Source: Candidatus Staskawiczbacteria bacterium RIFOXYB1_FULL_38_37
Lineage (GTDB): Bacteria > Patescibacteriota > Minisyncoccia > Minisyncoccales > Staskawiczbacteraceae
NCBI GenBank assembly: GCA_001822075.1
Contig: MHPK01000004.1
Span: 71,979-135,978, forward strand
Reading direction: 5' to 3'
DNA length: 64,000 nt
Every line of letters starts with the position of its first letter. Position 1 is the stretch's first letter. Positions 4,018-58,991 of this stretch are shown here, one piece after another. Both the position numbers and the translations under genes were made by a program. Below the pieces are notes generated by a model. It made no database searches. It saw only the letters and a list, made by a program, of their open reading frames with translations, and was not told the DNA's origin.

Positions 4018-4123
4018 AACAGAAATTTTAAATTATAAATTTTAAATGAAATTATAATGTTTAAATGTTTTAAAATTTAAGAATTTAGTTTTGAATTAAA
4101 ATTTAAAATTTGTTATTTAAAAT

Positions 4124-4789
4124 TTATTTTAGGAGTTCTGGCAATATTTCTGGATAATATCCCACCTCTGCCTGATCCGGATGGTGTATGGCCCAAAAAA
4201 GCTCTATAAGCTCTGGCGTTGTAAGGGGCACAGCCTCCAGCCCGCACCTTCTTAAACCCATTGCAACATATTCCATTCTTTGCCATATTTGAGTTTTGCA
4301 TCTTTGGAACTTGTCGTCATCTAATTTTTGATTTTGTTCTTTTTTACCTGAAAACTGGCTTAACAAATTGAAATTTTTTACAGCTGACCCCACGCCAAAA
4401 ATTTCCATTAAATTATAGGGAACTACCGCATAAAAGTTTTTTGTCATAACCACATCCCCCACAACCATATTTTTAATAAATTCCCTGTAAGAAGAAGTTT
4501 GTTTTCTCAGCAGTTCGTTCGTTTGTTTTTCTTCTAAATCTTTTATGCTGTCTAAATATGGAGTAATGTTTATATTTCTTGACTGAATGACAATTTGGCA
4601 GGAAAAATCCAAAGAATTCAAAAAGCTTTGAAAAGCATATACAATTGCCGTCTGCTCTTCTTCAGATTTTAACGCAAAATTTATTGAGGAAACCATTAAT
4701 ATTCCCCTTATAGAGCTATTTTTTAAAATCAAAACCCCCTCTCTTATATCCTGCACTTCCAAAAATGCTTGTGTTGCGCTCTCGGTCAT
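4124..4789 (-). CDS. Hypothetical T4SS-associated protein (resembles the non-ATPase N-terminal domain of Gram-positive-type VirB4)
   Basis: 221-aa ORF co-oriented with virB4. The N-terminus (FLEVQDIREGVLILKNSSIRGILMVSSINFALKSEEEQ) looks like VirB4 N-domain openings. Assigned by pattern memory only. Confidence 0.55.
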   Translation of the reverse strand: MTESATQAFLEVQDIREGVLILKNSSIRGILMVSSINFALKSEEEQTAIVYAFQSFLNSLDFSCQIVIQSRNINITPYLDSIKDLEEKQTNELLRKQTSSYREFIKNMVVGDVVMTKNFYAVVPYNLMEIFGVGSAVKNFNLLSQFSGKKEQNQKLDDDKFQRCKTQIWQRMEYVAMGLRRCGLEAVPLTTPELIELFWAIHHPDQAEVGYYPEILPELLK

Positions 4790-4857
4790 AATTTTACTAA
4801 TTATAAATTTTAAATTCTAAATTTTAATTGAAAAAACTAATTTTAAAATGTTTAAAT

Positions 4858-5229
4858 TTAATCAGAATTTTTATCCACAGAAGAAATTACTATTTTGGAA
4901 AAAATAAGCGTTAACTCTTGAGCTTCGTTCCAAAGTTTTCTGCACATGTCTGTTTTCTCTGGGTTAGCTTTGGCAATCATTCTTAACCAGTGTTTAGTTT
5001 CTCTTGTTTCTTTTTTGCAGATGCATATTTTATTTCTAAAGTCTTTTTTAGAGCTAGCCCCGTTTGCCTCCATATAATTTGCTCCAACACTCGTTGAAGA
5101 CCTTATTATCTGGCTTACGAGAGGACGGTTTATCTCGTTTTTTTCTAATGTTTTAATAAAGTCAATCATATCTTCGCCAAACCGAGCAGTCCTTTCTTCT
5201 AAGTCATATTTACAATTTGTTTTGTCCAT
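4858..5229 (-). CDS. Four-helix-bundle protein (23S rRNA intervening-sequence protein family)
   Basis: 123 aa with the family signature SSTSVGANYMEANGASSKKDFRNKICICKKETRETKHWL; flanked by inverted AT-rich repeats at 4797-4835 and 5243-5280. Confidence 0.85.
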   Translation of the reverse strand: MDKTNCKYDLEERTARFGEDMIDFIKTLEKNEINRPLVSQIIRSSTSVGANYMEANGASSKKDFRNKICICKKETRETKHWLRMIAKANPEKTDMCRKLWNEAQELTLIFSKIVISSVDKNSD

Positions 5230-5281
5230 TTAATCATTTAAATTTCATTTAAAATTGAAAATTTAAAATTTAAAATTAACT

Positions 5282-5689
5282 TTACTTCGTCCTCAGCTCT
5301 ACTTCTGTTTTTGTTTTTTTAAGCTGGCTTTGCTGAACTTTTAAAACAGGACCCTCTTCTATCTTTTTTATTTGGGCTCTTTTAATGGGCTTGAATGGAT
5401 AAAGTGATTCTTTCTTTTTCCATGTATAATTTTTTCCTCCTGCCATAAATCCTATTGAAGCTAATATCATATTTATTATCGGCACTCCGTTCACCTGCAC
5501 AAAGGCCAGCACCACAGAAACGGCTCCTATTAAAAAACTTGCTATTATAAAAAGAAAAAAGGGCAGCGCATAATACAAAATAAAGCAGATAACTCCTGCT
5601 CCCACCAGATAAAAAAACTGCCGGAAAGATATAAAGAAAGCAATTTTTCCTTCTGCTTCAATAAATTGCGGTATAGGATATTGTTCCAC
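5282..5689 (-). CDS. PrgI/VirB3-like small T4SS membrane protein
   Basis: 135 aa; PIPQFIEAEGKIAFFISFRQFFYLVG motif followed by two TM helices, typical of PrgI-family proteins. Confidence 0.7.
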   Translation of the reverse strand: MEQYPIPQFIEAEGKIAFFISFRQFFYLVGAGVICFILYYALPFFLFIIASFLIGAVSVVLAFVQVNGVPIINMILASIGFMAGGKNYTWKKKESLYPFKPIKRAQIKKIEEGPVLKVQQSQLKKTKTEVELRTK

Positions 5690-5857
5690 TTTTAAATAAT
5701 TTTAAATTATAAATTTTAATTGAAAAACCTAATTTTTAAATGTTTTAAACATTTTAACATTTAAAATTGATTTAAAATTTAAAATTTGTTATTTAAAATT
5801 TTATTCTATTATTATACCATGCAGAAAAAAGTAGTGATAACAAAAGTTTTCAACACC

Positions 5858-5886
5858 TTGACGCTGGTTTATCTTTATGATATAAT
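5858..5886 (+). promoter_or_regulatory. Near-consensus sigma70-type promoter of the SPFH-like gene
   Basis: TTGACG (5858-5863), 17-nt spacer, TATAAT (5881-5886) with TGA immediately upstream; AAGGAGA RBS at 5959-5965 and ATG at 5972. Confidence 0.6.
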
Positions 5887-5971
5887 AAAATATAGAGTTC
5901 GTTGTCAAAAATAGCCGGGGAGTTCTGGCTATCAACGATAGGTACACCTGTTTTCTTGAAGGAGAGAAAAG

Positions 5972-7222
5972 ATGAGAAATTTTTTGATTGGAGTGTTGCC
6001 CGTATGTTTTGTCGCGCTCGTTGTTGGGCTCGGGTTTGGTTTCTACTACCACCCAGTCATTATGACGATACTGGCGATTCTGTTGATCCTGGCGATTCCA
6101 CTTGCTTTACTGGTATGCTGGTTAATCGGTATTATCGGCTTCAAGCGGGTTCCGCCTAAGAAGTTGTTGCTGTTTACCTACGGCGATGATTTAGTCTATG
6201 GCGTAATGAACTTTCCGGGTCGCCATTTTGATCCGAATGGAAGAGTGGCACAGGGACAGGGACCTAGTGAATACTGGTATGGAGATTGCAGGTGGATTAT
6301 TCGCTGGAGGAGATGGGTCTTGTATTTTGGATGGTTTGTTTGGCCCGTATCATACGACGAAAACAACAATCCAGATGGCTTTGGTTTTGACATTTACGTC
6401 GATTTGTCAGATCACTTTGTGACTGTTAATGTCGAAGAAGCTGAGACCAAAGACAACATCCCAGACCCTGATAATCCCGGCGAGATGATTCCGGGCCCTG
6501 CTGCAAGTTACGATGCTCAATGCCCTGGAAGGGTTGTTGACCCTCGCCTGTTCGTCATTGGTTCGCCACCCAACGTTTTTCAGGATGGTATTGCCAGTGT
6601 GTTTGAGGCCATCATGCGCAAATGGGGACGCCTTAAGACCGAGTCAGAGCTGCTTAATGCAGGAGTGAGCGGAGGCGCCAGTGGAATTGGCGCTGAGCTT
6701 CAAGACCCTGCTAAAGTGGACGCCCAATCGGCGTTTGACATTATGTCAGAACGATGGGGCTTTGAGCTCGCGATAGAGGATATAACCATCAGGAGCATAA
6801 CCTTCAATAGATCTTACCAGGATGCTCGACAGGATGTTAGGCTGGAAGCTATGAAAGCTCAGGCTGCGGATGCCCGTATATACGGGCCCGTAAAAAGAGC
6901 GATTGCTGCTGGCATCGACCCCAAGGATGCAGTAAGATTACGCGGCTTGGATATGGGCGCCACGGCTGATCTGTCGGACAGAAAAGAGACGCTTAAGGTG
7001 GAGGGATTGGAGGGTATCCAGTATCTGTCCACTGGTGGCGCGGGTGGAATGGGAGTTATGCTTCCGGCCCCTCAACCGAAAGGAGGTAAAAATCCCGGCG
7101 GAAATCCGAAAGGAGGCAATCCCGGTGGTGGGCAAAAGGACGTGGCCCAACTGGCTGAAGAGCACTTCCGTCAGAATGGTAAATATCCCCCTTGGGATCC
7201 CTTGAAGCGAACGCCGAACTAA
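5972..7222 (+). CDS. SPFH/band-7-like membrane protein, compositionally foreign (about 50 percent GC)
   Basis: 416 aa; two N-terminal TM helices. SPFH-like blocks are present (GFKRVPPKK..; ETKDNIP..VVDPRLFV; WGFELAIEDITIRSITFNRSYQDARQDVRLEAMKAQA), with a Gly/Pro/Lys-rich tail. Codon usage (CTG, GCG, GGC) is unlike the neighbours. Opposite strand to the T4SS genes. Confidence 0.6.
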   Translation: MRNFLIGVLPVCFVALVVGLGFGFYYHPVIMTILAILLILAIPLALLVCWLIGIIGFKRVPPKKLLLFTYGDDLVYGVMNFPGRHFDPNGRVAQGQGPSEYWYGDCRWIIRWRRWVLYFGWFVWPVSYDENNNPDGFGFDIYVDLSDHFVTVNVEEAETKDNIPDPDNPGEMIPGPAASYDAQCPGRVVDPRLFVIGSPPNVFQDGIASVFEAIMRKWGRLKTESELLNAGVSGGASGIGAELQDPAKVDAQSAFDIMSERWGFELAIEDITIRSITFNRSYQDARQDVRLEAMKAQAADARIYGPVKRAIAAGIDPKDAVRLRGLDMGATADLSDRKETLKVEGLEGIQYLSTGGAGGMGVMLPAPQPKGGKNPGGNPKGGNPGGGQKDVAQLAEEHFRQNGKYPPWDPLKRTPN

Positions 7223-10451: not shown

Positions 10452-10859
10452 ATGGAAATAATAGCAGAACAAAAATTAAGTGTTGCAAAAGTTGCCAAAA
10501 AATTTAAGTTGAAATTAATTTTAATTTTTGGATCTTTTGCAAGCGGCAAACAACGAAAAGGCAGCGATTTAGATGTCGCTATTTTGGGTTTAAAGGGCAT
10601 TTCTTTTAATGAGGAAATTAAAATAGCTGGCGAATTGTCATTAATTTTTAGCAAAAATGTTGATATATCGGTTTTAAATACTGCTAATCCGCTGCTAACT
10701 TTTCAGGCAAGCAAAAATAGCATTTTACTTTATGGAAATAAAGAAGATTTTTTTAAGTTTAAAATATATGCGTTTAGCAGATATAATGATTATGCCCCTT
10801 ATTTTTTGATGGAGAGAGATTTAAACAAAAAAATAATAAACTCCTATGCCAGCCGATAA
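10452..10859 (+). CDS. mntA: MntA-type nucleotidyltransferase antitoxin
   Basis: 135 aa; minimal NTase motif GSFASGKQRKGSDLDVAIL; overlaps the downstream HEPN gene by 14 nt. Confidence 0.8.
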   Translation: MEIIAEQKLSVAKVAKKFKLKLILIFGSFASGKQRKGSDLDVAILGLKGISFNEEIKIAGELSLIFSKNVDISVLNTANPLLTFQASKNSILLYGNKEDFFKFKIYAFSRYNDYAPYFLMERDLNKKIINSYASR

Positions 10860-11268
10860 AGAGCTTGTAAATCGCAAAATAACCCTGATAAACGAAGACT
10901 TAAAGAGTTTAAAATTATTAAGCAAAGTTTCCCTTAAAACATATTTAAGTAAAACAGATTACGAAGTCTTGGCAGAAAGGTATTTAGAAAGAATCATTGG
11001 TCGCATGATTGACATTAACTACCACATTTTATCCGAGAACGATAACAAAATTCCTGTTGATTTTTATACATCTTTCATAGAATTGGGCAAAAAGAAATAT
11101 CTTTCGCTAAAATTGGCAAAAACTATGGCTAATTCCGCTGGTTTGAGAAATCGGCTTGCGCACGAATATGATGAAATTGATCCAAAAAAAGTTTATGGAG
11201 CGGTGAAGAGTTGTTTGAAAGATACTCCAAAATACTTAAAAAGTATAATAAAGTCATTGGGCTTGTAA
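10846..11268 (+). CDS. hepT: HepT (DUF86/HEPN) toxin
   Basis: 140 aa; HEPN Rx4-6H motif RNRLAHEYDEID near the C-terminus. Confidence 0.8.
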   Translation: MPADKELVNRKITLINEDLKSLKLLSKVSLKTYLSKTDYEVLAERYLERIIGRMIDINYHILSENDNKIPVDFYTSFIELGKKKYLSLKLAKTMANSAGLRNRLAHEYDEIDPKKVYGAVKSCLKDTPKYLKSIIKSLGL

Positions 11269-12015: not shown

Positions 12016-12702
12016 TTAAAAAAATGCTTTATACCCAATGTTTTTTTTAATTTCCAGAAGGAAAAAAGATTTTACGTCCTTCCATGTTGCCTTAAAATAA
12101 GTTTTGGGAGAGGGGTCTTCCTCGGCATCTTCAAAGTACGTAAGTGATTTTATAATGTGAGATAAATTTTGCTTTACAGAATATTGACTCATAGCCATAT
12201 CAATTGTTTTTTTTAATGGTTGAACATTTAAGGACAGCCAGTATAAATCAAAAAAATCGCGTTTCCTTCCGCGTTGGCTTATGGCTGCAATTTTCATTGC
12301 GGCAATGTCTTCTGGCGACATTATGGAAACAGCGCCGATTTTTAAAAAAGGTTTTGAAGCCTTAAAAAACGGGTATGAAATTAAACTTATTTTTGCTCTG
12401 TTAAGTTCTCCATATAATGTCCCTTCTTTAAGGAATGTTGTTTTCCAACCGCCGCCAATGCTTAAAATTTCTTCGGCATTTTTTTCATCAAACGATTTTT
12501 TAGGAGTAAAAAAATCCAAATCTATTGAACTGCGGTGTCCTTTTTGTATAGACAAAGCAGTCCCGCCGGCAAGGTACCAGCCGTTTTGCGCAAAAAAAGG
12601 AATTTCAATGCATCGTAGAAATGCTTTTTTAGTAGCTCTTGGAATTGCGCCCAAATACAATTTTTCCAATGCGGTTTTATCTATTTTAGAAAAAGAGACC
12701 AT
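12016..12702 (-). CDS. AbiEii/AbiGii-family nucleotidyltransferase toxin
   Basis: 228 aa; LAGGTALSIQKGHRSSIDLDFF motif typical of the family. Confidence 0.75.
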   Translation of the reverse strand: MVSFSKIDKTALEKLYLGAIPRATKKAFLRCIEIPFFAQNGWYLAGGTALSIQKGHRSSIDLDFFTPKKSFDEKNAEEILSIGGGWKTTFLKEGTLYGELNRAKISLISYPFFKASKPFLKIGAVSIMSPEDIAAMKIAAISQRGRKRDFFDLYWLSLNVQPLKKTIDMAMSQYSVKQNLSHIIKSLTYFEDAEEDPSPKTYFKATWKDVKSFFLLEIKKNIGYKAFF

Positions 12703-16523: not shown

Positions 16524-17036
16524 TTATTTTTCTTTAAAGCCGATTTCAGAATTAGTTTTATTCTCGTCAGCCAATAAAAGCCGCAAAATATCAAAAACTT
16601 TTTTTATTTTTGCATCATACTTTCTTTCTATTTGCATTATTTTTCTTTGCAAGGCTTCATTTGTTGCCAGCAACTCCCTAATTTTTACAAAAGTCCTTAT
16701 TATTTGGATATTTACATTTATCGCTCTGTTGCTATTTAGTACGCTAGCCAACATGGCTACGCCCTGTTCTGTAAAAACATATGGTTCATATCTCGCTCCA
16801 CCCCAACTTGAGGTTTCAAATTGAAACCTCAAGTTTTTAAACTCTTGTTTTGATAATCGGAACATAAAATCTTCTGGAAATCTTTTAATGTTCCTTTTTA
16901 CAGCGAGATTTAAAGATTTTGTTGGCACATTATAAAGTTGTGCCAAATCTTTATCTATCATAACTTTTTTATTGTGGATAATATATATTTTGTTAGCAAT
17001 CCTTTCGCTTGGAATTAGGTTTAAATTTTTATCCAT
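16524..17036 (-). CDS. ORF6N-domain (KilA-N-like) DNA-binding protein, paralog 1
   Basis: 170 aa; IYIIHNKKVMIDKDLAQLY..FTEQGVAMLASVLNSNRAINVNIQIIRTF. Roughly 60 percent identical to 20259-20786 by eye. Confidence 0.8.
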   Translation of the reverse strand: MDKNLNLIPSERIANKIYIIHNKKVMIDKDLAQLYNVPTKSLNLAVKRNIKRFPEDFMFRLSKQEFKNLRFQFETSSWGGARYEPYVFTEQGVAMLASVLNSNRAINVNIQIIRTFVKIRELLATNEALQRKIMQIERKYDAKIKKVFDILRLLLADENKTNSEIGFKEK

Positions 17037-20258: not shown

Positions 20259-20786
20259 TTATTTTTTAAAGCCGATTTCGGATTTTGGTTCAGTTTTATT
20301 ATCGCCTGCTTGCAAAAGTCCTAATATGTAAAAAATCTTTTTTATTTTATCATTTTGGCTCCCGTATTTTTTCTCTAATTCCATTATTTTTCTTTGCATA
20401 ATTTCATTCGTTGCCATAAGTTCGCGGATTTTCACAAATGTGCGAATAATCTGTAGGTTTACATTTATTGCTCGGTCATTGTTTAGCACGCTTGATAACA
20501 TTGCCACACCCTGTTCAGTAAAACAAAATGGAAGTTTTCTTAATCCCATCTTTTCAGAATTGGATATTTCAATTTGCAATATCCAATTTTTCATTTCTTT
20601 TTTGCTCATCTGGAACATAAAGTCTTCAGGGAATCTCTTTATATTTCTTTTCACAGCTAAATTTAAATTTCCTGTTGTGACCCCATAGAGTTCAGCTAAA
20701 TCTCTGTCCAGCATCACTTTCCTGTTGCGGAGAATATAAATTTTATTAACAATTCTTTCGCTTGGAATTATAATTGAATTTTTCAT
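20259..20786 (-). CDS. ORF6N-domain (KilA-N-like) DNA-binding protein, paralog 2
   Basis: 175 aa; FTEQGVAMLSSVLNNDRAINVNLQIIRTF. Bracketed by 26-bp direct repeats at 20230-20255 and 20785-20810. Confidence 0.8.
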   Translation of the reverse strand: MKNSIIIPSERIVNKIYILRNRKVMLDRDLAELYGVTTGNLNLAVKRNIKRFPEDFMFQMSKKEMKNWILQIEISNSEKMGLRKLPFCFTEQGVAMLSSVLNNDRAINVNLQIIRTFVKIRELMATNEIMQRKIMELEKKYGSQNDKIKKIFYILGLLQAGDNKTEPKSEIGFKK

Positions 20787-21289
20787 TATTTCTTCAATAA
20801 AAATTTTGGCAGGCCTTCGTCTATGTCAATAAATTCGTCTGCGATTTCTTTTAATTTTGAAGAGGTTGTTTTTCCAAATGCCATTACCTCAACCCGTTTG
20901 CCCTGGTTTTTTAGATATTCCACCAAAGCAATAAAATCTCCGTCTCCAGAGCATAAAACAATAACATCAAGCCCCGGAGAGGTTCTGATTGCATCAATAA
21001 CAATACCCACATCCCAGTCTGCTTTTTTAGCTCCGCCATACCATTCCTGCAAATCCCTTACCCTTGTTTCAATGCCGATTTTTGAAAGAGCATCAAAAAA
21101 AGGCGCTTCTTCGCCAGTTTTTGTGCGCACAACATAGCCAAAAGCTCTGATAAACTTTCTTCCTGCTATCGCGTTTTTTAAAACTTCCTGATAATTTACC
21201 TTTGCGTGGTAAAGGTTTTTTGCCGAATGGTACAGATTTTGCACATCAATCAGCACCTCTACTCTTTGTTCTTTTGGTTTTGGCTGCAT
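20786..21289 (-). CDS. NYN/LabA-like (PIN-related) putative RNase
   Basis: 167 aa; VEVLIDVQNLYHSAK..VLCSGDGDFIALVEYLK, typical of LabA/NYN proteins. TAATG overlaps at both ends. Confidence 0.7.
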   Translation of the reverse strand: MQPKPKEQRVEVLIDVQNLYHSAKNLYHAKVNYQEVLKNAIAGRKFIRAFGYVVRTKTGEEAPFFDALSKIGIETRVRDLQEWYGGAKKADWDVGIVIDAIRTSPGLDVIVLCSGDGDFIALVEYLKNQGKRVEVMAFGKTTSSKLKEIADEFIDIDEGLPKFLLKK

Positions 21290-21775: not shown

Positions 21776-21827
21776 GTATACTCTATTTTATCTGTTTTGT
21801 AAAGCTTGCCCTGAGTTTATCAAAGGG

Positions 21828-21898
21828 TGCCCCCACTCAGAATCGGACTGAGATAGGATGCTTAAGAGGCATCTACTTTACCATTAAGTTATGGGGGC
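21828..21898 (-). tRNA. tRNA-Lys (anticodon CUU), no encoded CCA
   Basis: Hand-folded cloverleaf: acceptor GCCCCCA/TGGGGGC, D stem ACTT/AAGT, anticodon loop CTCTTAA, T stem CTCAG/CTGAG. Confidence 0.85.
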
Positions 21899-21903
21899 GA
21901 TAA

Positions 21904-22311
21904 TTAATTGCAATTCATCTGCGGGTTCCACCATGTTCCCATTTGGTACCCAATCACTGAAAGAATAGTGTTGATAATAACCCACGAAGCAAATACTAAA
22001 AATAAGCCGATAATTGCAGAATATAAAATCTTTTTTCCGCTACCCATTAAATTGGGATTGCCGGCAGATATAAGTATAAATACTCCGCCTATTGTTACTC
22101 CCACAATTGCCAAAGGAGTAGCTATGCTCAAGACAAGAAAGTTATAAATATAAATGAGCGTTGCAAAAAAATCGCAAATATCACAGGCATGATAGCCGGG
22201 TTTTGTTGGATCTCCATTTCCGCATCGCACAAACGGCGCTTGGGCTAATGCTAATACAGGAATTAAAATTAATAAAATCAAAACTCCGGATATTAAAAAA
22301 TATGTTTTCAT
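21904..22311 (-). CDS. T4SS-pilin-domain protein (CPR-type TrbC/VirB2-like pilin)
   Basis: Start trimmed to ATG 22311, because the longer ORF runs into tRNA-Arg. Signal peptide MKTYFLISGVLILLILIPVLALA, Cys-containing mature N-terminus, C-terminal ..ISAGNPNLMGSGKKILYSAIIGLFLVFASWVIIN. Confidence 0.75.
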   Translation of the reverse strand: MKTYFLISGVLILLILIPVLALAQAPFVRCGNGDPTKPGYHACDICDFFATLIYIYNFLVLSIATPLAIVGVTIGGVFILISAGNPNLMGSGKKILYSAIIGLFLVFASWVIINTILSVIGYQMGTWWNPQMNCN

Positions 22312-22322
22312 CTTTTTCTTTG

Positions 22323-22395
22323 TGCCCTCGCCAGGACTCGAACCCGGAATCCTCGGTTCGAAGCCGAGCGTGATATCCAGTTTCACCACGAGGGC
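22323..22395 (-). tRNA. tRNA-Arg (anticodon UCG), no encoded CCA
   Basis: Acceptor GCCCTCG/CGAGGGC, D stem GTGA/TCAC, anticodon loop CTTCGAA, T loop TTCGAGT. Confidence 0.88.
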
Positions 22396-22466
22396 ACGCG
22401 GTTAATTTGTTAAATTATACCAAATTTATTGAAAAATATCAATTTTTAAAGTAATATAGAAAAATC

Positions 22467-23969
22467 ATGACAATACCAAAAGAGGTCAAAATCATTATCG
22501 AAAAACTGCAAAAGGCGAAGTTTGAGGCATATATCGTGGGCGGATGCGTGCGCGATTTTTTAATTGGCATTAATCCTAAAGACTGGGACATAACCACAAA
22601 TGCCAAGCCCGAAGAAATCCAAAAAGTTTTTCCGGATAGTTTTTATGAAAATAATTTTTTAACTGTCACCGCGCGCACAGGCAGTAAAAAAATTCCGGAG
22701 GTTGAAATTACTACTTACAGATTAGAAGCAAAATATTCTGACAAGCGTCATCCAGACGAAATAAAATATGCAAAAACATTAGAAGAGGATTTAAGCCGCA
22801 GGGATTTTACCATAAATGCAATGGCCCTTCGCCTCGGCTCAGGGCCTTCGGCCAAAAAAGAAGTTGTTGATTTGTTTGAAGGGCAGAAAGATTTAAAAAA
22901 TAAGATAATCAAGACAGTTGGAAATCCTGAAGAAAGATTTTCAGAAGATGCTTTAAGAATGTTAAGGGCAGTAAGGTTTGCAGCAACTTTGGAAGATGGT
23001 TTTTCCCGCCAAGAGGCGGGACCCCGCCAGAGGCGGTGGAAAATTGAAGAAAATACTGCAGAAGCTATTAAAAAAAATAGCATCTGGCTGGAAGCGATTT
23101 CACAGGAAAGAATAAAAGATGAATTTTTAAAAATAATTATGTCAGATAAAGCTGAAGAAGGAATTGAGCTTTTAAGAGAGCTTAGCTTATTAAAATACAT
23201 AATTCCTGAATTATTGGATAATTACGGCGTAAGCCAAAGCAAACATCATATTTATGACTGCTACCAGCATGCAATAAAATCTTTGGGATATGCTGCAAAG
23301 AAAAAATTTAATATGCATGTAAGATTGGCGGCTCTTTTGCATGATATTGCCAAGCCAAAAGTAAAAATTGGAGAGGGCGAGGAAGCTACTTTTTATAATC
23401 ACGAAATAGTTGGAGCTAAAATAACTTTCCAGCTTCTAAACAGATTAAAATTTTCCAAAAAAGATGTTGAAAAAATAACAAAACTGGTAAGATTCCATTT
23501 GTTTTATTATAATGTTGACGAGGTTGGAGAATCGTCTGTAAGAAGACTGGTAAAAAATGTGGGGCCGGAAAACATAGAAGAGCTTTTGCAGGTAAGGCAG
23601 GCAGACAGGATTGGTTCTGGCGTGCCGAAAGCAGAGCCCTATAAATTAAGGCATTTAAAATATCTGATTGATAAAGTTTCACAGGACCCAATTTCAGCTA
23701 AAATGCTGGAAATTGACGGAAACGATTTGATGAAAATTTTAAAAATAAAACCCGGTCCAAAAATCGGCCAGATTTTAGATATTCTTTTGGGATATGTTTT
23801 AGACGACCCCCAAAAAAATAGCAAAGAATTTTTGCGCAAAGAAGCTGATAAATTGGGCAAATTAAGCCAAAAAGAATTGCAAAAATTGGCGGAAAAATCA
23901 AAGCAGGAAAAACAGGAAGTTGAAACCAAAAAAGACGAAATGACCAAGCAAAAATATTGGGTAACATAA
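22467..23969 (+). CDS. cca: CCA-adding tRNA nucleotidyltransferase with HD domain
   Basis: 500 aa; GGCVRDFLIG..DWDITT head domain and HD motif LLHDIAKP. Carries GC hairpins at 22823-22853 and 23005-23036. Confidence 0.9.
   Translation: MTIPKEVKIIIEKLQKAKFEAYIVGGCVRDFLIGINPKDWDITTNAKPEEIQKVFPDSFYENNFLTVTARTGSKKIPEVEITTYRLEAKYSDKRHPDEIKYAKTLEEDLSRRDFTINAMALRLGSGPSAKKEVVDLFEGQKDLKNKIIKTVGNPEERFSEDALRMLRAVRFAATLEDGFSRQEAGPRQRRWKIEENTAEAIKKNSIWLEAISQERIKDEFLKIIMSDKAEEGIELLRELSLLKYIIPELLDNYGVSQSKHHIYDCYQHAIKSLGYAAKKKFNMHVRLAALLHDIAKPKVKIGEGEEATFYNHEIVGAKITFQLLNRLKFSKKDVEKITKLVRFHLFYYNVDEVGESSVRRLVKNVGPENIEELLQVRQADRIGSGVPKAEPYKLRHLKYLIDKVSQDPISAKMLEIDGNDLMKILKIKPGPKIGQILDILLGYVLDDPQKNSKEFLRKEADKLGKLSQKELQKLAEKSKQEKQEVETKKDEMTKQKYWVT
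23005..23036. repeat. Two tandem GC hairpins inside cca
   Basis: CCCGCC-AAGA-GGCGGG (23005-23020) and CCGCC-AGA-GGCGG (23024-23036); together they encode SRQEAGPRQRR. Confidence 0.85.
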
Positions 23970-23986
23970 TGAAAATTTTAAAACAA

Positions 23987-24057
23987 CGGGGCGTAGTATA
24001 GCAGCAGTATGCACCCTTCGGGAGGGTGTGGCCCGAGTGCAAATCTCGGCGCCCCGA
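23987..24057 (+). tRNA. tRNA-Pro (anticodon CGG), atypical D and T loops, no encoded CCA
   Basis: Acceptor CGGGGCG/CGCCCCG, anticodon loop TTCGGGA, T stem CCGAG/CTCGG. However, the T loop is TGCAAAT and the D loop lacks GG. Confidence 0.7.
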
Positions 24058-24095
24058 CATAATGGGATAAAAAGGGTCTGTAGTAAAGCGGTATT

Positions 24096-24113
24096 ACCTG
24101 CCTGTCGGCAGGC
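24096..24113. repeat. GC hairpin in the tRNA-Pro/tRNA-Ala spacer
   Basis: ACCTGCC-TGTC-GGCAGGC; shares CGGCAGGCAGGC with the element at 41329-41349. Confidence 0.7.
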
Positions 24114-24147
24114 AGGCGCGTCATTTTTACCCCGTTAGAAAATTCAC

Positions 24148-24218
24148 GGGCTTATAGTACAGTGGTAGTACGCCGCATTCGCATTGCGGAGACGCGAGTT
24201 CGACTCTCGCTAAGTCCA
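24148..24218 (+). tRNA. tRNA-Ala (anticodon CGC), no encoded CCA
   Basis: Acceptor GGGCTTA/TAAGTCC with the G3:U70 identity pair, anticodon loop TTCGCAT, T loop TTCGACT. Confidence 0.88.
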
Positions 24219-24225
24219 CAAATTT

Positions 24226-33316: not shown

Positions 33317-34146
33317 GCCCCGAGCTCACAAGAGTTTGTAAAACTAAAAAATGACTATATTAGACCATGCCGCGGAGAAAAGAACAATTTGTAACCGGCG
33401 AGATTTATCATATTGTAATACGAGCGATTGATAATAACTTGATTTTTAAGGACTTAAACGATTATTATCGCGGCATTTTTTCTATTTACGAGTTTAATAA
33501 CGCCATCCCTGTGAATATTTTTAATCGACGATTAGCCAGGACCGCTGAAAAGAAAAAAGAAAAATTTTGTGAGCTCGGGGCTCACAAAATTTTAGTAGAA
33601 GATGCAAGAGATAAATTTATTAAAGTTTTAGCTTTTTGCTTTATGCCAAACCACGTTCATCTTCTGACAAAACAAATAAAAGACGGGGGAATATCCAAAT
33701 TTATGCAAAAAGTTGGAGGCGGATACGGAGGATATTTTAACAGAAAATATCAGAGGAAGGGTCATGTTTTTCAAAACGAATTTAAATCGGTTCATGTGGA
33801 TACAGATAATCAGCTTATAGCGACAGCTTCGTATATTTTTACAAACCCTATTGCACTTATTGAACCCAGTTGGAAGGAAAAAGGAATTCAAAAACATTCT
33901 GTAAAGGAGGTCTCAAAGTTTTTGGAAGACTATAAATGGTCAAGTTATCAAGACTGCATTGGCGTTAAAAATTTCCCTTCTGTTACAGAAAGAGAATTTC
34001 TTTTAGAAACAATGGGCGGAATAAATGGCTTGAATGGAGTTGTAAAAGATTGGATAGAGCATAAAAAAGACATTGCAAAATACACAGACTTATTTTTAGA
34101 GTAAATCTTGTGAGCTCGGAGCTCACAAGATTTTGTGAGCTCACAA
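33313..34146 (+). mobile_element. REP-RAYT unit: Y1 transposase gene bracketed by GTGAGC-N5-GCTCAC hairpins
   Basis: REP copies at 33313-33329 (loop CCCGA), 33561-33593 (inside the gene), 34104-34132 (loop TCGGA, opposite orientation) and 34133-34146 (loop-less). Confidence 0.75.
33367..34104 (+). CDS. REP-associated tyrosine transposase (IS200/IS605-type Y1 HUH transposase-like)
   Basis: 245 aa; HUH motif MPNHVHLL and catalytic Tyr context ASYIFTNP. Confidence 0.8.
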   Translation: MPRRKEQFVTGEIYHIVIRAIDNNLIFKDLNDYYRGIFSIYEFNNAIPVNIFNRRLARTAEKKKEKFCELGAHKILVEDARDKFIKVLAFCFMPNHVHLLTKQIKDGGISKFMQKVGGGYGGYFNRKYQRKGHVFQNEFKSVHVDTDNQLIATASYIFTNPIALIEPSWKEKGIQKHSVKEVSKFLEDYKWSSYQDCIGVKNFPSVTEREFLLETMGGINGLNGVVKDWIEHKKDIAKYTDLFLE

Positions 34147-35672: not shown

Positions 35673-37172
35673 ATGAACATACTATTAGTGTACCCCGAAT
35701 TTTTGGCAACTTTTTGGAGCTGGAAGCATCTTTTGAAATTTGTGGCTAAAAAATCGGCATTTCCTCCTTTAGGATTGTTGACTATAGCTGCTATGCTTCC
35801 TGAAGACTGGGAAAAAAGAGTTGTTGATTTGAATGTCAGAAAGCTCACAGATGAGGATATTAAATGGGCAGACTTTGTTTTTGTAAGCGCTATGATAGCG
35901 CAAAAAAATTCGGCAGTCGAGATTATAGAGCGGTGTCAGGTATTGGGCGCGCCTGTAGTTCTTGGCGGCCCAATTTTAGAAACCGAAGACTCTTGCAAAG
36001 AGTTTCCGAGCGTAGAACACTTTTTTCTGGGCGAAGCAGAAGAAACTCTGCCTGGATTTTTGAGCGACCTTCAAGCTTCACAGGAAAAAAGGGTCTACAG
36101 TTCAGAAAGGTTCCCTGACATAGAAATTTCTCCCATACCCCTGTATAGACTGATTGACCCGAAAGATTACGCATCCGGATTTGCGCAATTCAGCAGGGGA
36201 TGCCCCTTTGAATGCACTTTTTGCAACATCGCGCATCTGAACGGCCGTAAATGGAGGTCAAAATCTCCAAACAGGTTTTTGGCAGGAATTGATGCAATGC
36301 ATCAAGCCGGTTTTCGCGGCGCTGTGCAAATTGCAGATGATAATTTTGTGGGCAAGATAGCAAAAACAAAAGAAATGCTTTCAGCGCTTATTCTTTGGCA
36401 AAATGCCCGCGGGTATCCGTTTGAATTTACAATTGAAGCCCCTGTAATAATTGCTGACGATGCCGAACTGATGGATTTAATGGCGCAGGCAAATGTCAAA
36501 AAAGTTTTTCTGGGGCTGGAAACAGACAATCCTGAATGTCTTGCAGAGTGCCAAAAAAAGCAAAATTTGCATCGCGATTTGGTGGCTGACGTAAAAAGAA
36601 TCCAGAGCAGCGGTCTTATTCCGATGTCTGGATTTATCGTGGGTTTTGACAGCGACCATCCCGACAGCTTTGTTGAAAAAATGATTGACTTCATCGGGCA
36701 GTCAGGGATTTGCATGGCCATGGTTGACGTGCTTCAGGCCCAGCCTGGCACAAAGCTATATGAAAAACTAAAGCAACAAGGAAGGCTTTTAAGGGCATCT
36801 GTGAGCAATACTGATTGCTACCCTAACTTTATTCCCATGATGCCGGTTGAAACTCTTGCTAATGGCTATAAAAAAATTCTACAGAAGATTTATTCTCCCA
36901 AAGAGTACTATAAAAGAATCCGTGAGTTTGTAAGCGAGTATGATTCTTCCAAGCGGCCCAGAATAAAGATCACTATGTGGGATTTCAGAGCTTTTATGCG
37001 GGCAAACGTTTGGATAGGCATACTTGGAGGGCCAAAAGTCAGCTATTACTATTGGCTGTCTATTTTCACCACTGTTTTTTCCAAAAAATGGCGCGCGTTA
37101 TCCGATGTCGTTGCTTTACAAATTTACAGGTTTCACTTTGGAAAAGTTACAGAGGAAATCGTGAACGCATAA
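35673..37172 (+). CDS. B12-binding-domain radical SAM enzyme (DUF4070-type C-terminus), compositionally atypical
   Basis: 499 aa; cobalamin-binding N-domain (LGLLTIAAMLP..FVFVSAM), radical SAM cluster motif CPFECTFC. GC is clearly above the flanks. Confidence 0.85.
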   Translation: MNILLVYPEFLATFWSWKHLLKFVAKKSAFPPLGLLTIAAMLPEDWEKRVVDLNVRKLTDEDIKWADFVFVSAMIAQKNSAVEIIERCQVLGAPVVLGGPILETEDSCKEFPSVEHFFLGEAEETLPGFLSDLQASQEKRVYSSERFPDIEISPIPLYRLIDPKDYASGFAQFSRGCPFECTFCNIAHLNGRKWRSKSPNRFLAGIDAMHQAGFRGAVQIADDNFVGKIAKTKEMLSALILWQNARGYPFEFTIEAPVIIADDAELMDLMAQANVKKVFLGLETDNPECLAECQKKQNLHRDLVADVKRIQSSGLIPMSGFIVGFDSDHPDSFVEKMIDFIGQSGICMAMVDVLQAQPGTKLYEKLKQQGRLLRASVSNTDCYPNFIPMMPVETLANGYKKILQKIYSPKEYYKRIREFVSEYDSSKRPRIKITMWDFRAFMRANVWIGILGGPKVSYYYWLSIFTTVFSKKWRALSDVVALQIYRFHFGKVTEEIVNA

Positions 37173-53560: not shown

Positions 53561-54049
53561 ATGGCTCTGCCTTTACCGGGAAATAATTCTCCCATACAAA
53601 ACAATAGATTAGATATGCTAAAAAAAAGTTCCAGTTTTGCGCCCCAGAAGTCCGAAAAATCTCTTGGAGCTAGTTTTATAAAAAAAGGAACCAGTCTTTT
53701 GCCAAAGAAAAAAGAAGAAACTAAAAAAGAAGCGCCGAAAAGCCCTGCTGACACTTCAATTTTTGGCGGAAAATCTGAGATTTCAAGAATTGAGCTGAGG
53801 CAAAAATTAAGGAAAGATGCCAACGTGTGGAATGCAGAAAGGCAGGTTGGCCTTTCTTTGAGCCCGTCAGAAAGAGCGAGCTTGGAAAAAGAGGTCTTTT
53901 CACAGGCTTTGGGCAGAGATATTTCAAAGAGAGATTTAAATTTTGCAATTAAGAAAATGAATCAAAAAAGAATCTCTGCAAATAGTTTTGCCGAAAAGGA
54001 AAAATTGAGAAAGCAAATAAATTTTTTTAAGAAAATAGGGGGAATATAA
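53561..54049 (+). CDS. Basic hypothetical protein
   Basis: 162-aa ORF starting 4 nt after ileS. No motif recognised. Confidence 0.5.
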   Translation: MALPLPGNNSPIQNNRLDMLKKSSSFAPQKSEKSLGASFIKKGTSLLPKKKEETKKEAPKSPADTSIFGGKSEISRIELRQKLRKDANVWNAERQVGLSLSPSERASLEKEVFSQALGRDISKRDLNFAIKKMNQKRISANSFAEKEKLRKQINFFKKIGGI

Positions 54050-56507: not shown

Positions 56508-57062
56508 ATGGTTCCAGCTAAAATGTTTTTTACAAAAGGCGTGGGGACAGCCAAACAGCAATTAATGTCATTTGAAATGGCATTAAGAGATGCTGGTATA
56601 GAAAAATTTAATTTGGTTACCGTGTCTAGCATACTTCCTCCGGGATGCAAGAGAATTACCCGGGAAAAAGGATTGGAAATGTTAAAGCCGGGAGAAGTTG
56701 TGTATTGCGTTATGGCAAGGAATGCCACAAACGAGCCCAATAGATTAGTAGCAGCCTCTATTGGATGCGCAGTGCCGGCTGGAAACGACCAGCAATACGG
56801 ATATTTGTCAGAACACCATCCCTATGGCGAAACAGACGAAAAAACATCAGATTGCGCCGAAGATCTGGCAGCTACAATGCTGGCTACAACTTTGGGCATT
56901 GAGTTTGACCCAAATACCGCATGGGACGAGAGAGAAAAGGTTTACAAGCTTTCAGGCAAAATTGTTACAACAACAAATATAACACAATCAGCCCAGGGTA
57001 ATAAAGACGGGCTTTGGACAACAGTGGTTGCCGCAGCCATATTTGTTCCTCCAGAGGCTTAA
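56508..57062 (+). CDS. pdaD: Pyruvoyl-dependent arginine decarboxylase
   Basis: 184 aa; [39 protein letters not shown], including the Ser-Ser self-cleavage site context. Confidence 0.85.
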
Positions 57063-57066
57063 TTTT

Positions 57067-58098
57067 ATGGCAAAACAAAATAAGAAAAAATTGCTTAAAG
57101 AAATTGTAAAGCATATAGATATAAAATCTTTTGATTCAACAAAAATCATAAATGCAATGTCTGATATGTCTTTTACAGCCCGCGACTTGGCAAGAGCTTC
57201 TGAAATTTATGATATGATGCTTAAAGATAAAAAATGCGCGATTTTTTTGGCAATAGCAGGTTCCACAAGCAGCGCCGGATGCATGCAGATATATGTTGAT
57301 TTGGTTAAGAACAATATGGTTGACGCAATAATTGCAACGGGTGCCAGCATTGTTGACATGGATTTTTTTGAAGCTTTAGGATTTAAGCATTATAAAGGAA
57401 GCCCGAATGTTGATGATAATCTTTTAAGAAGCCTTTATATAGACAGAATTTACGACACTTTTATTGACGAGGAAGAACTGCAGGTTTGCGACCAAACAGT
57501 AAAAAAAATTGCAGACAGCCTTGAGCACAGGCCTTATTCTTCAAGAGAATTTATTTTTGAAATGGGCAAGTATCTTACAAAGCGCTCAAAGAAAAAAGAC
57601 TCTCTTATAGAAACAGCTTTCAAAAAAAATGTTCCTATTTTTTGCCCGGCTTTTTCTGATTCAAGCGCGGGATTTGGGCTGGTATGCCACCAATGGGAAA
57701 ATCCAAAAGAGCATGTTTCAATCGATTCTGTAAAAGATTTTTTAGAGCTTACAAAAATTAAAATTTCAGCTGGAATTTCAGGAGTTTTAATGATAGGGGG
57801 AGGCGTTCCAAAAAACTTTATACAAGACACTGTGGTTGCAGCCGAAGTTTTAGGCTATGAGGCGCCTATGCATAAGTACGCAATTCAAATTACAGTAGCT
57901 GACGCAAGGGATGGAGCATGTTCATCTTCCACTTTAAAAGAAGCCAGCTCTTGGGGAAAAGTAAAGCAGGGGTATGACCAAATGGTTTATGCAGAAGCAA
58001 CTTCTGTTTTGCCATTGCTGGCAAGCTATGCCTATCACCAAAAGAGCTGGAAAAACAGAAAGCCAAAAAATTTCAGCAAGATTTTAGACAAAGCATGA
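57067..58098 (+). CDS. Deoxyhypusine synthase-family protein
   Basis: Start trimmed to ATG 57067 (MAKQNKKKLL). AGSTSSAGC, IIATGASIVDMD and GGGVPKNF are DHS-family blocks. Confidence 0.8.
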   Translation: MAKQNKKKLLKEIVKHIDIKSFDSTKIINAMSDMSFTARDLARASEIYDMMLKDKKCAIFLAIAGSTSSAGCMQIYVDLVKNNMVDAIIATGASIVDMDFFEALGFKHYKGSPNVDDNLLRSLYIDRIYDTFIDEEELQVCDQTVKKIADSLEHRPYSSREFIFEMGKYLTKRSKKKDSLIETAFKKNVPIFCPAFSDSSAGFGLVCHQWENPKEHVSIDSVKDFLELTKIKISAGISGVLMIGGGVPKNFIQDTVVAAEVLGYEAPMHKYAIQITVADARDGACSSSTLKEASSWGKVKQGYDQMVYAEATSVLPLLASYAYHQKSWKNRKPKNFSKILDKA

Positions 58099-58991
58099 AG
58101 CAATATAATAATTTTTTAAATATTGAACCGCAATATTCAGAGCTTGATAAATCAAGGGCAGTGATTGTTCCTTTTGGATACGAAGCATCTACTACTTACG
58201 GGAGCGGGACAAAAAAGGGGCCCAAAGCCATAATTTTGGCATCTTCCCAAGTAGAATTGTTTGATGAAGAATTAGAAAAAGAAGTTTATAAAGAAACAGG
58301 CATCTGCACTATCCCGGAATTAAAATATAAAACAGGTACTGATTTTTATCTACCCTTGTCAGAAAAAACAGCTGAAATGCTGGCTTTGAAAAAGTTTCCG
58401 GTTATTCTGGGAGGAGAGCATACAATTACTTTTGGCGGAATAATGGGAGCCAAAGAAAAATACAAAAATTTTTCTATGCTTCATTTTGATGCCCACGCTG
58501 ATTTAAGAGATACATACGAGGGCAATAAATTTTCTCACGCCTGCGTTATGCGCCGCGTGCAAGAATTGCCAGAAGTTAAAAATCTGGTTCAAATAGGCAT
58601 AAGAAATATAAGCAATGAAGAAAGCGAGGGCGGCGAGTTTAATTTTTATAAGGCAAACCAAGATAAAATAAAAATATTTTGGGCAGATAAAAAAGATGAA
58701 TGGGATACAAAAGATATATTGCAAAACCTTTTAGAAAACGTTTATTTGACTTTTGATGTAGATGTTTTTGACCCGTCAATAATGCCTTCAACCGGAACTC
58801 CCGAGCCCGGCGGATTATATTGGAATGAAGTTTTAAGAATTTTAAAACAGGTTTTTTTGAAAAAAAATGTTATTGCTGAAGATTTTGTGGAATTAAGCCC
58901 TTTAAAGAATTTTCCAGCCCCTGACTTTATGGTTGCCAAATTAATTTATAAAACAATAGGCTATAAATTTTTACTTAATAAGAAAAAATAA
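58095..58991 (+). CDS. speB: Agmatinase/ureohydrolase
   Basis: 298 aa; HFDAHADLRD, GGEHTIT and TFDVDVFDPS metal-binding motifs. Its ATG overlaps the DHS stop (ATGA). Confidence 0.85.
   Translation: MKQYNNFLNIEPQYSELDKSRAVIVPFGYEASTTYGSGTKKGPKAIILASSQVELFDEELEKEVYKETGICTIPELKYKTGTDFYLPLSEKTAEMLALKKFPVILGGEHTITFGGIMGAKEKYKNFSMLHFDAHADLRDTYEGNKFSHACVMRRVQELPEVKNLVQIGIRNISNEESEGGEFNFYKANQDKIKIFWADKKDEWDTKDILQNLLENVYLTFDVDVFDPSIMPSTGTPEPGGLYWNEVLRILKQVFLKKNVIAEDFVELSPLKNFPAPDFMVAKLIYKTIGYKFLLNKKK

Follow-up and report, generated by a model that had tools for sequence, protein, structure and literature searches.

What does a homologue of deoxyhypusine synthase (DHS) do in a bacterium, when we know of no initiation factor 5A (IF5A) substrate in bacteria? 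The question is posed by a cluster of three genes in a 64,000-nucleotide stretch of contig MHPK01000004.1 of Candidatus Staskawiczbacteria bacterium RIFOXYB1_FULL_38_37 (hereafter the window; coordinates are positions in it). The three genes lie on the plus strand and encode a homologue of pyruvoyl-dependent arginine decarboxylase (PdaD), the DHS homologue (SpeY) and a speB-like ureohydrolase. The trio very probably constitutes a biosynthetic module for sym-homospermidine that follows the agmatine/SpeY route, with N1,N9-bis(guanidino)homospermidine, also known as G44G, caldomycin or diagmatine, as its intermediate. The basis for this assignment in the window is family membership, active-site residues, phylogenetic position and gene linkage, and the chemistry is extrapolated from orthologues. 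The cluster is of an already-known kind, in that a curated equivalog model recognizes SpeY and an experimentally tested cluster matches the gene composition. Its features are:

56508–57062, plus strand: pdaD, predicted pyruvoyl-dependent arginine decarboxylase (arginine to agmatine); 184 amino acids, Pfam PF01862 PvlArgDC, E 6.9e-61
57054–57057, plus strand: GAGG Shine-Dalgarno-like motif, 9 nt 5' of the speY ATG and within the 3' end of pdaD; read directly
57067–58098, plus strand: speY, DHS homologue of the SpeY/CdmS type with the predicted catalytic residue Lys298; 343 amino acids from the ATG, Pfam DS, E 8.7e-97
58095–58991, plus strand: speB-like ureohydrolase of the arginase fold; 298 amino acids, Pfam PF00491 Arginase, E 9.1e-61

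An earlier, sequence-only reading of this DNA had placed three tightly coupled genes here, and both junctions are found as it described them. The pdaD stop TAA (57060–57062) is followed by TTTT and then by the speY ATG at 57067, which corresponds to a 4-nt spacer, and the ureohydrolase ATG at 58095 overlaps the speY TGA (58096–58098) in an ATGA (58095–58098). The same product set of 184, 343 and 298 amino acids is found in the public gene calls for an independent assembly. The speY open reading frame (ORF) can be extended 5' to a TTG at 57028 in a mechanical ORF list. From end to end, the product that starts at the ATG is 100% identical to P0001, a public protein from Candidatus Staskawiczbacteria bacterium RIFOXYC1_FULL_37_43, and aligns with CdmS of Thermus thermophilus from Met1.

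Family and active site of the DHS homologue

By its model scores and residues, the DHS homologue is classified as a SpeY/CdmS enzyme and not as a true DHS. It reaches 589 bits with the NCBIfam equivalog NF002699.1 (cut-off 500), with residues 7–340 of 343 aligned, and remains below the cut-offs of all five equivalog models of true DHS (301 bits for a cut-off of 434, 229 for 364, 228 for 304, 162 for 350, and 145 for 380). The score obtained with NF001980, the model of the cyanobacterial-type "homospermidine biosynthesis protein", is 196 for a cut-off of 450, which places the window SpeY in the CdmS-type subfamily and not in the cyanobacterial one. Searches of the PDB with the window SpeY retrieved DHS-fold matches with E values of 3e-33 to 1e-22. 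An identity as bacterial homospermidine synthase (HSS) was rejected, because that family is non-homologous and DS is the sole Pfam family that the window protein matches.

The window SpeY was compared with CdmS and with human, plant and cyanobacterial reference sequences, for which Kobayashi et al. (Sci Rep 2024, PMC10981699) provide an alignment in their Supplementary Figure 1. It is 58.8% identical to T. thermophilus CdmS, 32.7% identical to Cylindrospermum SpeY, and 27–28% identical to human DHS, plant DHS and plant HSS. In a neighbor-joining tree, it is located beside its Staskawiczbacteria relative (locus L001) in a clade with CdmS as the basal member, with cyanobacterial SpeY (CsSpeY), archaeal DHS and eukaryotic DHS/HSS successively farther away. 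This is a distance tree without bootstrap or support values, but the identity gap of 59% versus 27% leaves little doubt on the placement. A phylogeny of the DHS homologue was a check that the sequence-only reading had named, and the protein nests among characterized homospermidine-pathway enzymes, in the CdmS clade; the reading had listed such nesting in the outcome that would refute its proposal.

The deposited NCBI name of the identical protein is "deoxyhypusine synthase", as is that of nearly all named homologues among the matches listed. For these proteins the label is systematic and outdated. The correction has value for annotation, as the name invites speculation on protein modification, and the curated models and two experimental papers point to an agmatine-coupling enzyme.

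The CdmS residues named in PMC10981699 correspond to the window residues given below. Residue numbers in that paper are offset by +5 from its figure, which the correspondence allows for, and the roles of the residues come from a docking model and not from mutagenesis.

CdmS Lys299 (human Lys329), window Lys298: catalytic, enzyme-imine lysine
CdmS Glu293, window Glu292: guanidino binding
CdmS Ser67, window Ser66: guanidino binding
CdmS Glu136, window Glu135: second agmatine site
CdmS Asp143, window Asp142: second agmatine site
CdmS Phe204, window Phe203: in place of human Asp243
CdmS Leu286, window Cys285: in place of human Asp316, also non-acidic

The replacement of Leu286 by Cys285 is the sole change among these seven residues. 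Conservation was assessed in 80 related loci, which are the best 80 of at least 598 confirmed matches in a scan of GTDB species genomes for SpeY homologues, belong to many phyla and encode proteins 68–84% identical to the window SpeY. The window residues that match the named CdmS set are invariant across these loci, and all 80 close relatives have the Cys285 that stands in contrast to Leu286 of CdmS.

A further difference is located at DHS His288, a residue described as invariant and as proton acceptor/donor (PMC7226451), which is Asn250 in the window SpeY (codon 57814–57816). Asn is also found at this position in CdmS, in cyanobacterial SpeY and in 80/80 related loci. The CdmS paper names only two active-site differences, at Asp243 and Asp316, and leaves the change of His288 to Asn unmentioned (PMC10981699); this change may bear on the NAD-dependent oxidation of agmatine by SpeY. 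The replacement of Asp316 was considered as a SpeY-specific marker, but Leu occupies this position in the archaeal DHS structures 7cmc and 8put too, and the marker was rejected for this reason. Phe203, Asn250 and Ser66 discriminate SpeY from DHS better than the Asp316 position.

These residues bear on one proposal of the sequence-only reading, namely a deoxyhypusine-type modification of elongation factor P (EF-P). In that case, a lysine of EF-P or another bacterial protein would receive a 4-guanidinobutyl or aminobutyl group that the DHS-like enzyme takes from agmatine, with subsequent trimming by the agmatinase-like enzyme, similar to the route proposed for archaeal IF5A (aIF5A) of Haloferax. 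SpeY and DHS have the fold and the catalytic-lysine chemistry in common, and agmatine-linked hypusination has been proposed for halophilic archaea (PMC5178350). However, the window SpeY fails every true-DHS model and carries Asn250 instead of the invariant proton-relay His288, and its orthologues, to which it is tied by 59% identity and by a score that exceeds the equivalog cut-off, make free G44G in vitro and in Escherichia coli without a protein acceptor. EF-P and aIF5A probes, validated against PDB entries, detected no EF-P or IF5A gene in the 64-kb window, nor did they detect one near speY (about 5 kb) in any of the 80 related loci. In Thermus, the loss of homospermidine upon cdmS deletion accounts for the role of the gene without a protein target (PMC10981699). 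The modification of EF-P finds no support in these results, given the failed true-DHS models, the missing DHS residues Asp243, His288 and Asp316, and orthologues that make a free small molecule, and it is considered highly improbable. A second, protein-directed activity of SpeY, beside or instead of G44G synthesis, would likewise modify EF-P, or a different translation factor, with guanidinobutyl or aminobutyl at a lysine, with trimming by the ureohydrolase. We give it hardly any credence; if true, it would be a bacterial counterpart of hypusination, and important.

Proposed route from arginine to homospermidine

The assignment of the trio to homospermidine synthesis draws on two biochemical studies. 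Purified T. thermophilus CdmS (caldomycin synthase, TTHA1570) uses agmatine only, and not putrescine or spermidine; deletion of cdmS abolishes homospermidine in Thermus, and G44G and N1-aminobutylagmatine are undetectable in the cells (PMC10981699). SpeY enzymes of seven bacterial species from diverse phyla make G44G in agmatinase-deficient E. coli, an activity that human DHS, plant DHS and bacterial HSS lack (Li et al., JBC 2026, PMC13625781). In the same study, the SpeY-linked ureohydrolases of Caldilinea aerophila and Winogradskyella algicola hydrolyzed G44G and not agmatine, and every SpeB homologue tested turned G44G into homospermidine, whatever its native substrate. The C. aerophila cluster tested there combines SpeY and SpeB with an archaeal-type pyruvoyl arginine decarboxylase (ADC).

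The product of pdaD in the window is identified by its model matches as a pyruvoyl-dependent arginine decarboxylase, with 212.5 bits for NCBIfam NF009064 (cut-off 207) and 123 bits for TIGR00286 (cut-off 107). In an alignment with Methanocaldococcus jannaschii PdaD (PDB code 1n2m), its VSSILPP motif falls on the Ser53 position, and the self-cleavage and pyruvoyl site is predicted at Ser40/Ser41.

The ureohydrolase has a complete binuclear set of metal-ligand motifs, GGEH (106–109), DAHAD (132–136) and DVDVFDP (221–227). It exceeds the cut-off of the "agmatinase" model TIGR01230 (215 bits versus 174) and misses that of the E. coli-type SpeB model NF002564 (127 versus 302), and is therefore not an E. 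coli-type SpeB. Its closest structures in the PDB are the putative agmatinases 3lhl and 3pzl, with E. coli SpeB being distant. We infer that it is a diagmatine ureohydrolase (DUH) that would prefer G44G over agmatine, because of the gene context and of the published argument that a canonical agmatinase, by depleting agmatine, would starve SpeY of its substrate (PMC13625781).

In the proposed mechanism, PdaD would self-cleave at Ser40/Ser41, form its pyruvoyl cofactor and decarboxylate L-arginine to agmatine. SpeY, an NAD enzyme with the DHS fold, would oxidize one agmatine, with the 4-guanidinobutyl moiety bound to Lys298 as an imine; another agmatine would then accept this moiety at its primary amine, and SpeY would reduce the product to G44G. 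The ureohydrolase would take urea off both ends of G44G, via N1-aminobutylagmatine, to produce homospermidine. Putrescine would be bypassed and would not be an intermediate.

The sequence-only reading had arranged the same enzymes differently, with a canonical agmatinase that converts the agmatine made by PdaD to putrescine and a DHS-like enzyme that condenses putrescine with putrescine or spermidine to homospermidine. Such an order would agree with the match of the third gene to the "agmatinase" model TIGR01230. Plant DHS-derived HSS and eukaryotic DHS can form homospermidine from spermidine and putrescine, and E. coli agmatinase works on both agmatine and G44G, so that the family has dual specificity (PMC13625781). 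The order conflicts with the observations that purified CdmS consumed neither putrescine nor spermidine (PMC10981699) and that all tested SpeY enzymes required the ureohydrolase downstream, not upstream, for homospermidine (PMC13625781). A canonical agmatinase would take away the substrate of SpeY, no spermidine-pathway gene was found in the window, and Asp243 and Asp316, the acidic residues of human DHS (HsDHS) that are replaced by Phe and Leu in CdmS and retained by plant HSS, are missing from the window SpeY. Taken literally, this order of steps is unlikely. The homospermidine product and the general roles of the enzymes were anticipated correctly; the putrescine intermediate and the step order were wrong, because characterized SpeY/CdmS enzymes couple agmatine and not putrescine or spermidine (PMC10981699, PMC13625781), and the ureohydrolase would act last, on G44G.

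Alternatively, the module might mainly make agmatine or a guanidino-polyamine. G44G or N1-aminobutylagmatine would be the physiological end product, or the ureohydrolase would have another guanidino substrate, with homospermidine being minor. Specificity is plastic in the arginase fold, and the nearest enzymes in the PDB include guanidinobutyrase, guanidinopropionase and proclavaminate amidinohydrolase besides agmatinases; furthermore, 54–55 of the 80 related loci are without a ureohydrolase within about 5 kb of speY. We nonetheless regard this alternative as improbable. All tested SpeB homologues converted G44G to homospermidine (PMC13625781), no G44G or N1-aminobutylagmatine was detectable in Thermus cells (PMC10981699), and the ureohydrolase gene translationally overlaps speY in an arrangement that is kept in the sister genome L001. 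Conversion of G44G to homospermidine by the ureohydrolase is the reading that we retain.

Conserved linkage and genomic setting

The distribution of SpeY homologues modifies a premise of the sequence-only reading, which had regarded PdaD and DHS homologues as unusual in bacteria. This was overstated, since close homologues of the DHS-like gene are found in the at least 598 matches, and in hundreds of bacterial genomes. The locus neighborhood was taken as about 5 kb around speY. An Arginase-family gene lies near speY in 25–26 of the 80 related loci, and none is found within about 5 kb in the remaining 54–55. A PdaD homologue, 59–80% identical to that of the window, is located beside speY in six loci (L001, L021, L043, L044, L055 and L062). 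In 17 Bacteroidales loci, an alanine racemase (AR)-fold decarboxylase dependent on pyridoxal phosphate (PLP) occurs near speY in place of PdaD. These loci are like the published Winogradskyella cluster, with alternative ADC types as described in PMC13625781.

The full trio is present on one strand in three gene orders: pdaD-speY-speB in the window and in L001, pdaD-speB-speY in the Planctomycetota loci L043 and L055, and speB-speY-pdaD in the Leptospirales locus L062. The sister genome L001 keeps the overlap arrangement of speY and the ureohydrolase gene of the window. The gene speY was also found in metagenome-assembled genomes (MAGs) labelled Falkowbacteria, Veblenbacteria and Paceibacterota. 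The co-location of the three families in distant phyla, which survives rearrangement, is the main evidence that the genes of the trio are functionally linked.

SpeY itself is 68–75% identical between the candidate phyla radiation (CPR), Bacteroidota, Syntrophia, Planctomycetota and DPANN, and its partners are conserved to a lower degree (PdaD 59–62%, ureohydrolase 37–43%). The high cross-phylum conservation of SpeY is compatible with a very strong constraint, with frequent horizontal transfer, or with both.

CdmS-type SpeY proteins, 72–75% identical to that of the window, are encoded on twelve DPANN-assigned contigs (L018, L004, L010, L011, L020, L025, L026, L028, L029, L046, L078 and L079). 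In L018 (positions 4153–6032; Aenigmatarchaeota MAG JACPAH010000034.1), an Arginase-family gene overlaps the SpeY start and forms a speB-speY pair. A gene for the small subunit of replication factor C (RFC), an archaeal/eukaryal marker, lies 1.5 kb from this pair, so that the archaeal assignment of the contig looks genuine. PMC13625781 explicitly left open the presence of agmatine-dependent DHS homologues in archaea, and the DPANN loci suggest that some archaea encode them.

The spacing of the genes carries less weight than their co-occurrence. From 22467 to 62654 the genes run in one direction, and 13 of the 31 junctions in this string span at most 10 nt; glyS starts 1 nt past the ureohydrolase stop. 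Short junctions are thus common across the window, and spacing by itself is no evidence of an operon; it was dropped as such after this base rate had been measured. Between 54000 and 62800, promoter-like sites (32 versus 28.4) and terminator-like sites (7 versus 6.5) occur at shuffle expectation, so that transcription-unit boundaries are not callable. In an Rfam scan that covered the window from end to end, the matches were limited to four tRNAs, and no riboswitch was located near the cluster.

Several points weigh against the assignment of the trio to homospermidine synthesis. The chemistry presumed for the enzymes of the window is carried over from orthologues. PdaD exceeds its best equivalog cut-off by a narrow margin (212.5 versus 207). 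The substrate preference of the ureohydrolase is not readable from sequence, and we know of no published sequence signature for DUH specificity; the protein is also only 37–43% identical to SpeY-linked ureohydrolases of other phyla. Genes are as a rule closely packed in this compact genome, and the spacing is not specific to the cluster. Finally, the view is confined to 64 kb, within which no polyamine genes were found beyond the trio, and other polyamine enzymes or transporters are possible elsewhere in the genome.

The host is a mesophile-type member of the CPR/Patescibacteria, and the GC content of the window is 36%. Upstream of the cluster, the neighbors on the same strand are rpoB, rpoC, an amino-acid-kinase-family gene, argS, a histidine phosphatase gene, ileS, recO and a gene for a DUF11-type surface protein; downstream, they are glyS and the genes of an M16 peptidase and an AI-2E transporter. 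The cluster would thus represent a complete arginine-to-homospermidine module among housekeeping genes (aminoacyl-tRNA synthetases, recO and rpoBC) in a Patescibacteria genome. At least some metabolically reduced Patescibacteria may make their own triamine instead of scavenging it. In a literature search for work that ties Patescibacteria to homospermidine, none of the papers listed named Patescibacteria.

Other parts of the window contain further features. A Lys/Ser-rich ORF of 162 amino acids without a Pfam match (53561–54049) is located between ileS and recO, and a gene of the same length is called in the independent assembly. An IS200-like Y1 transposase domain protein (33367–34104; PF01797, 2.7e-11) is encoded between the Fpg glycosylase gene and holA, amid a co-directional run of housekeeping genes, and a B12-binding radical SAM protein with a DUF4070 C-terminal domain (35673–37172) is encoded just 5' of rpoB. 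Four tRNA genes (21826–24219), Lys-CTT and Arg-TCG on the minus strand and Pro-CGG and Ala-CGC on the plus strand, flank the gene of the CCA-adding enzyme (22467–23969) and mark the switch point from mostly minus-strand to plus-strand genes. The segments 2212–4789 and 21904–22389 contain type IV secretion-like genes, which comprise a TraG/VirB4-type P-loop ATPase of 601 amino acids, a weak TraC-like neighbor, and a type IV secretion system (T4SS) pilin-domain protein encoded beside the tRNA cluster.

On the minus strand, two paralogous ORF6N-domain proteins (1.6e-35 and 2.7e-32) and an NYN-domain nuclease are encoded at 16524–17036, 20259–20786 and 20786–21289. The second ORF6N gene abuts the nuclease gene, and pnp (PNPase) lies between the two ORF6N copies. 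A Polbeta-type nucleotidyltransferase gene (10452–10859) overlaps a 140-aa ORF (10846–11268), and an AbiEii-family nucleotidyltransferase toxin is encoded at 12016–12702. The genes at 10452–11268 and 12016–12702 are likely toxin-antitoxin genes.

Comparison with known systems

True DHS (EC 2.5.1.46; human 6XXJ, archaeal 7cmc and 8put) has the same fold as the window SpeY, in which the equivalents of Lys329, Glu323, Trp327, Asp238 and Asp313 are kept. By contrast, Asp243, His288, Asp316 and Asn106 of human DHS are replaced by Phe, Asn, Cys and Ser, and the insertion of about 25 residues that eukaryotic DHS have near the N-terminus is absent from the window SpeY.

Bacterial HSS (EC 2.5.1.44; Blastochloris viridis 4TVB) has the homospermidine product and the NAD dependence in common with the route proposed here. 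Its fold is non-homologous to that of DHS and CdmS, however, and it uses two putrescine molecules as substrate and makes no G44G. Cyanobacterial SpeY of the Anabaena and Cylindrospermum type is a DHS homologue needed for homospermidine synthesis, and has the Lys, Glu and Asn active-site features in common with the window SpeY at an identity of 32.7%.

The closest characterized enzyme is found in the comparison with T. thermophilus, in which CdmS works together with TtSpeBap, a ureohydrolase of the SpeB type. The window SpeY, at 58.8% identity, shares the catalytic Lys and the proposed agmatine-binding residues of CdmS, with Cys285 in the position of Leu286. The two-step logic, homocoupling of agmatine followed by a ureohydrolase, would be shared as well. 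Differences are found in the arginine decarboxylase, which is a PLP-dependent AR-fold enzyme in Thermus and PdaD in the window, and in the Thermus ureohydrolase, which also serves the N1-aminopropylagmatine route.

The speY-speB-pyruvoyl ADC cluster of C. aerophila (PMC13625781) consists of the same three protein families as the window cluster, and is likened to it by composition. It belongs to the phylum Chloroflexota, whereas the window belongs to Patescibacteria. The C. aerophila SpeY makes G44G, and the C. aerophila SpeB converts G44G to homospermidine and is inactive on agmatine, and is hence a diagmatine ureohydrolase (PMC13625781).

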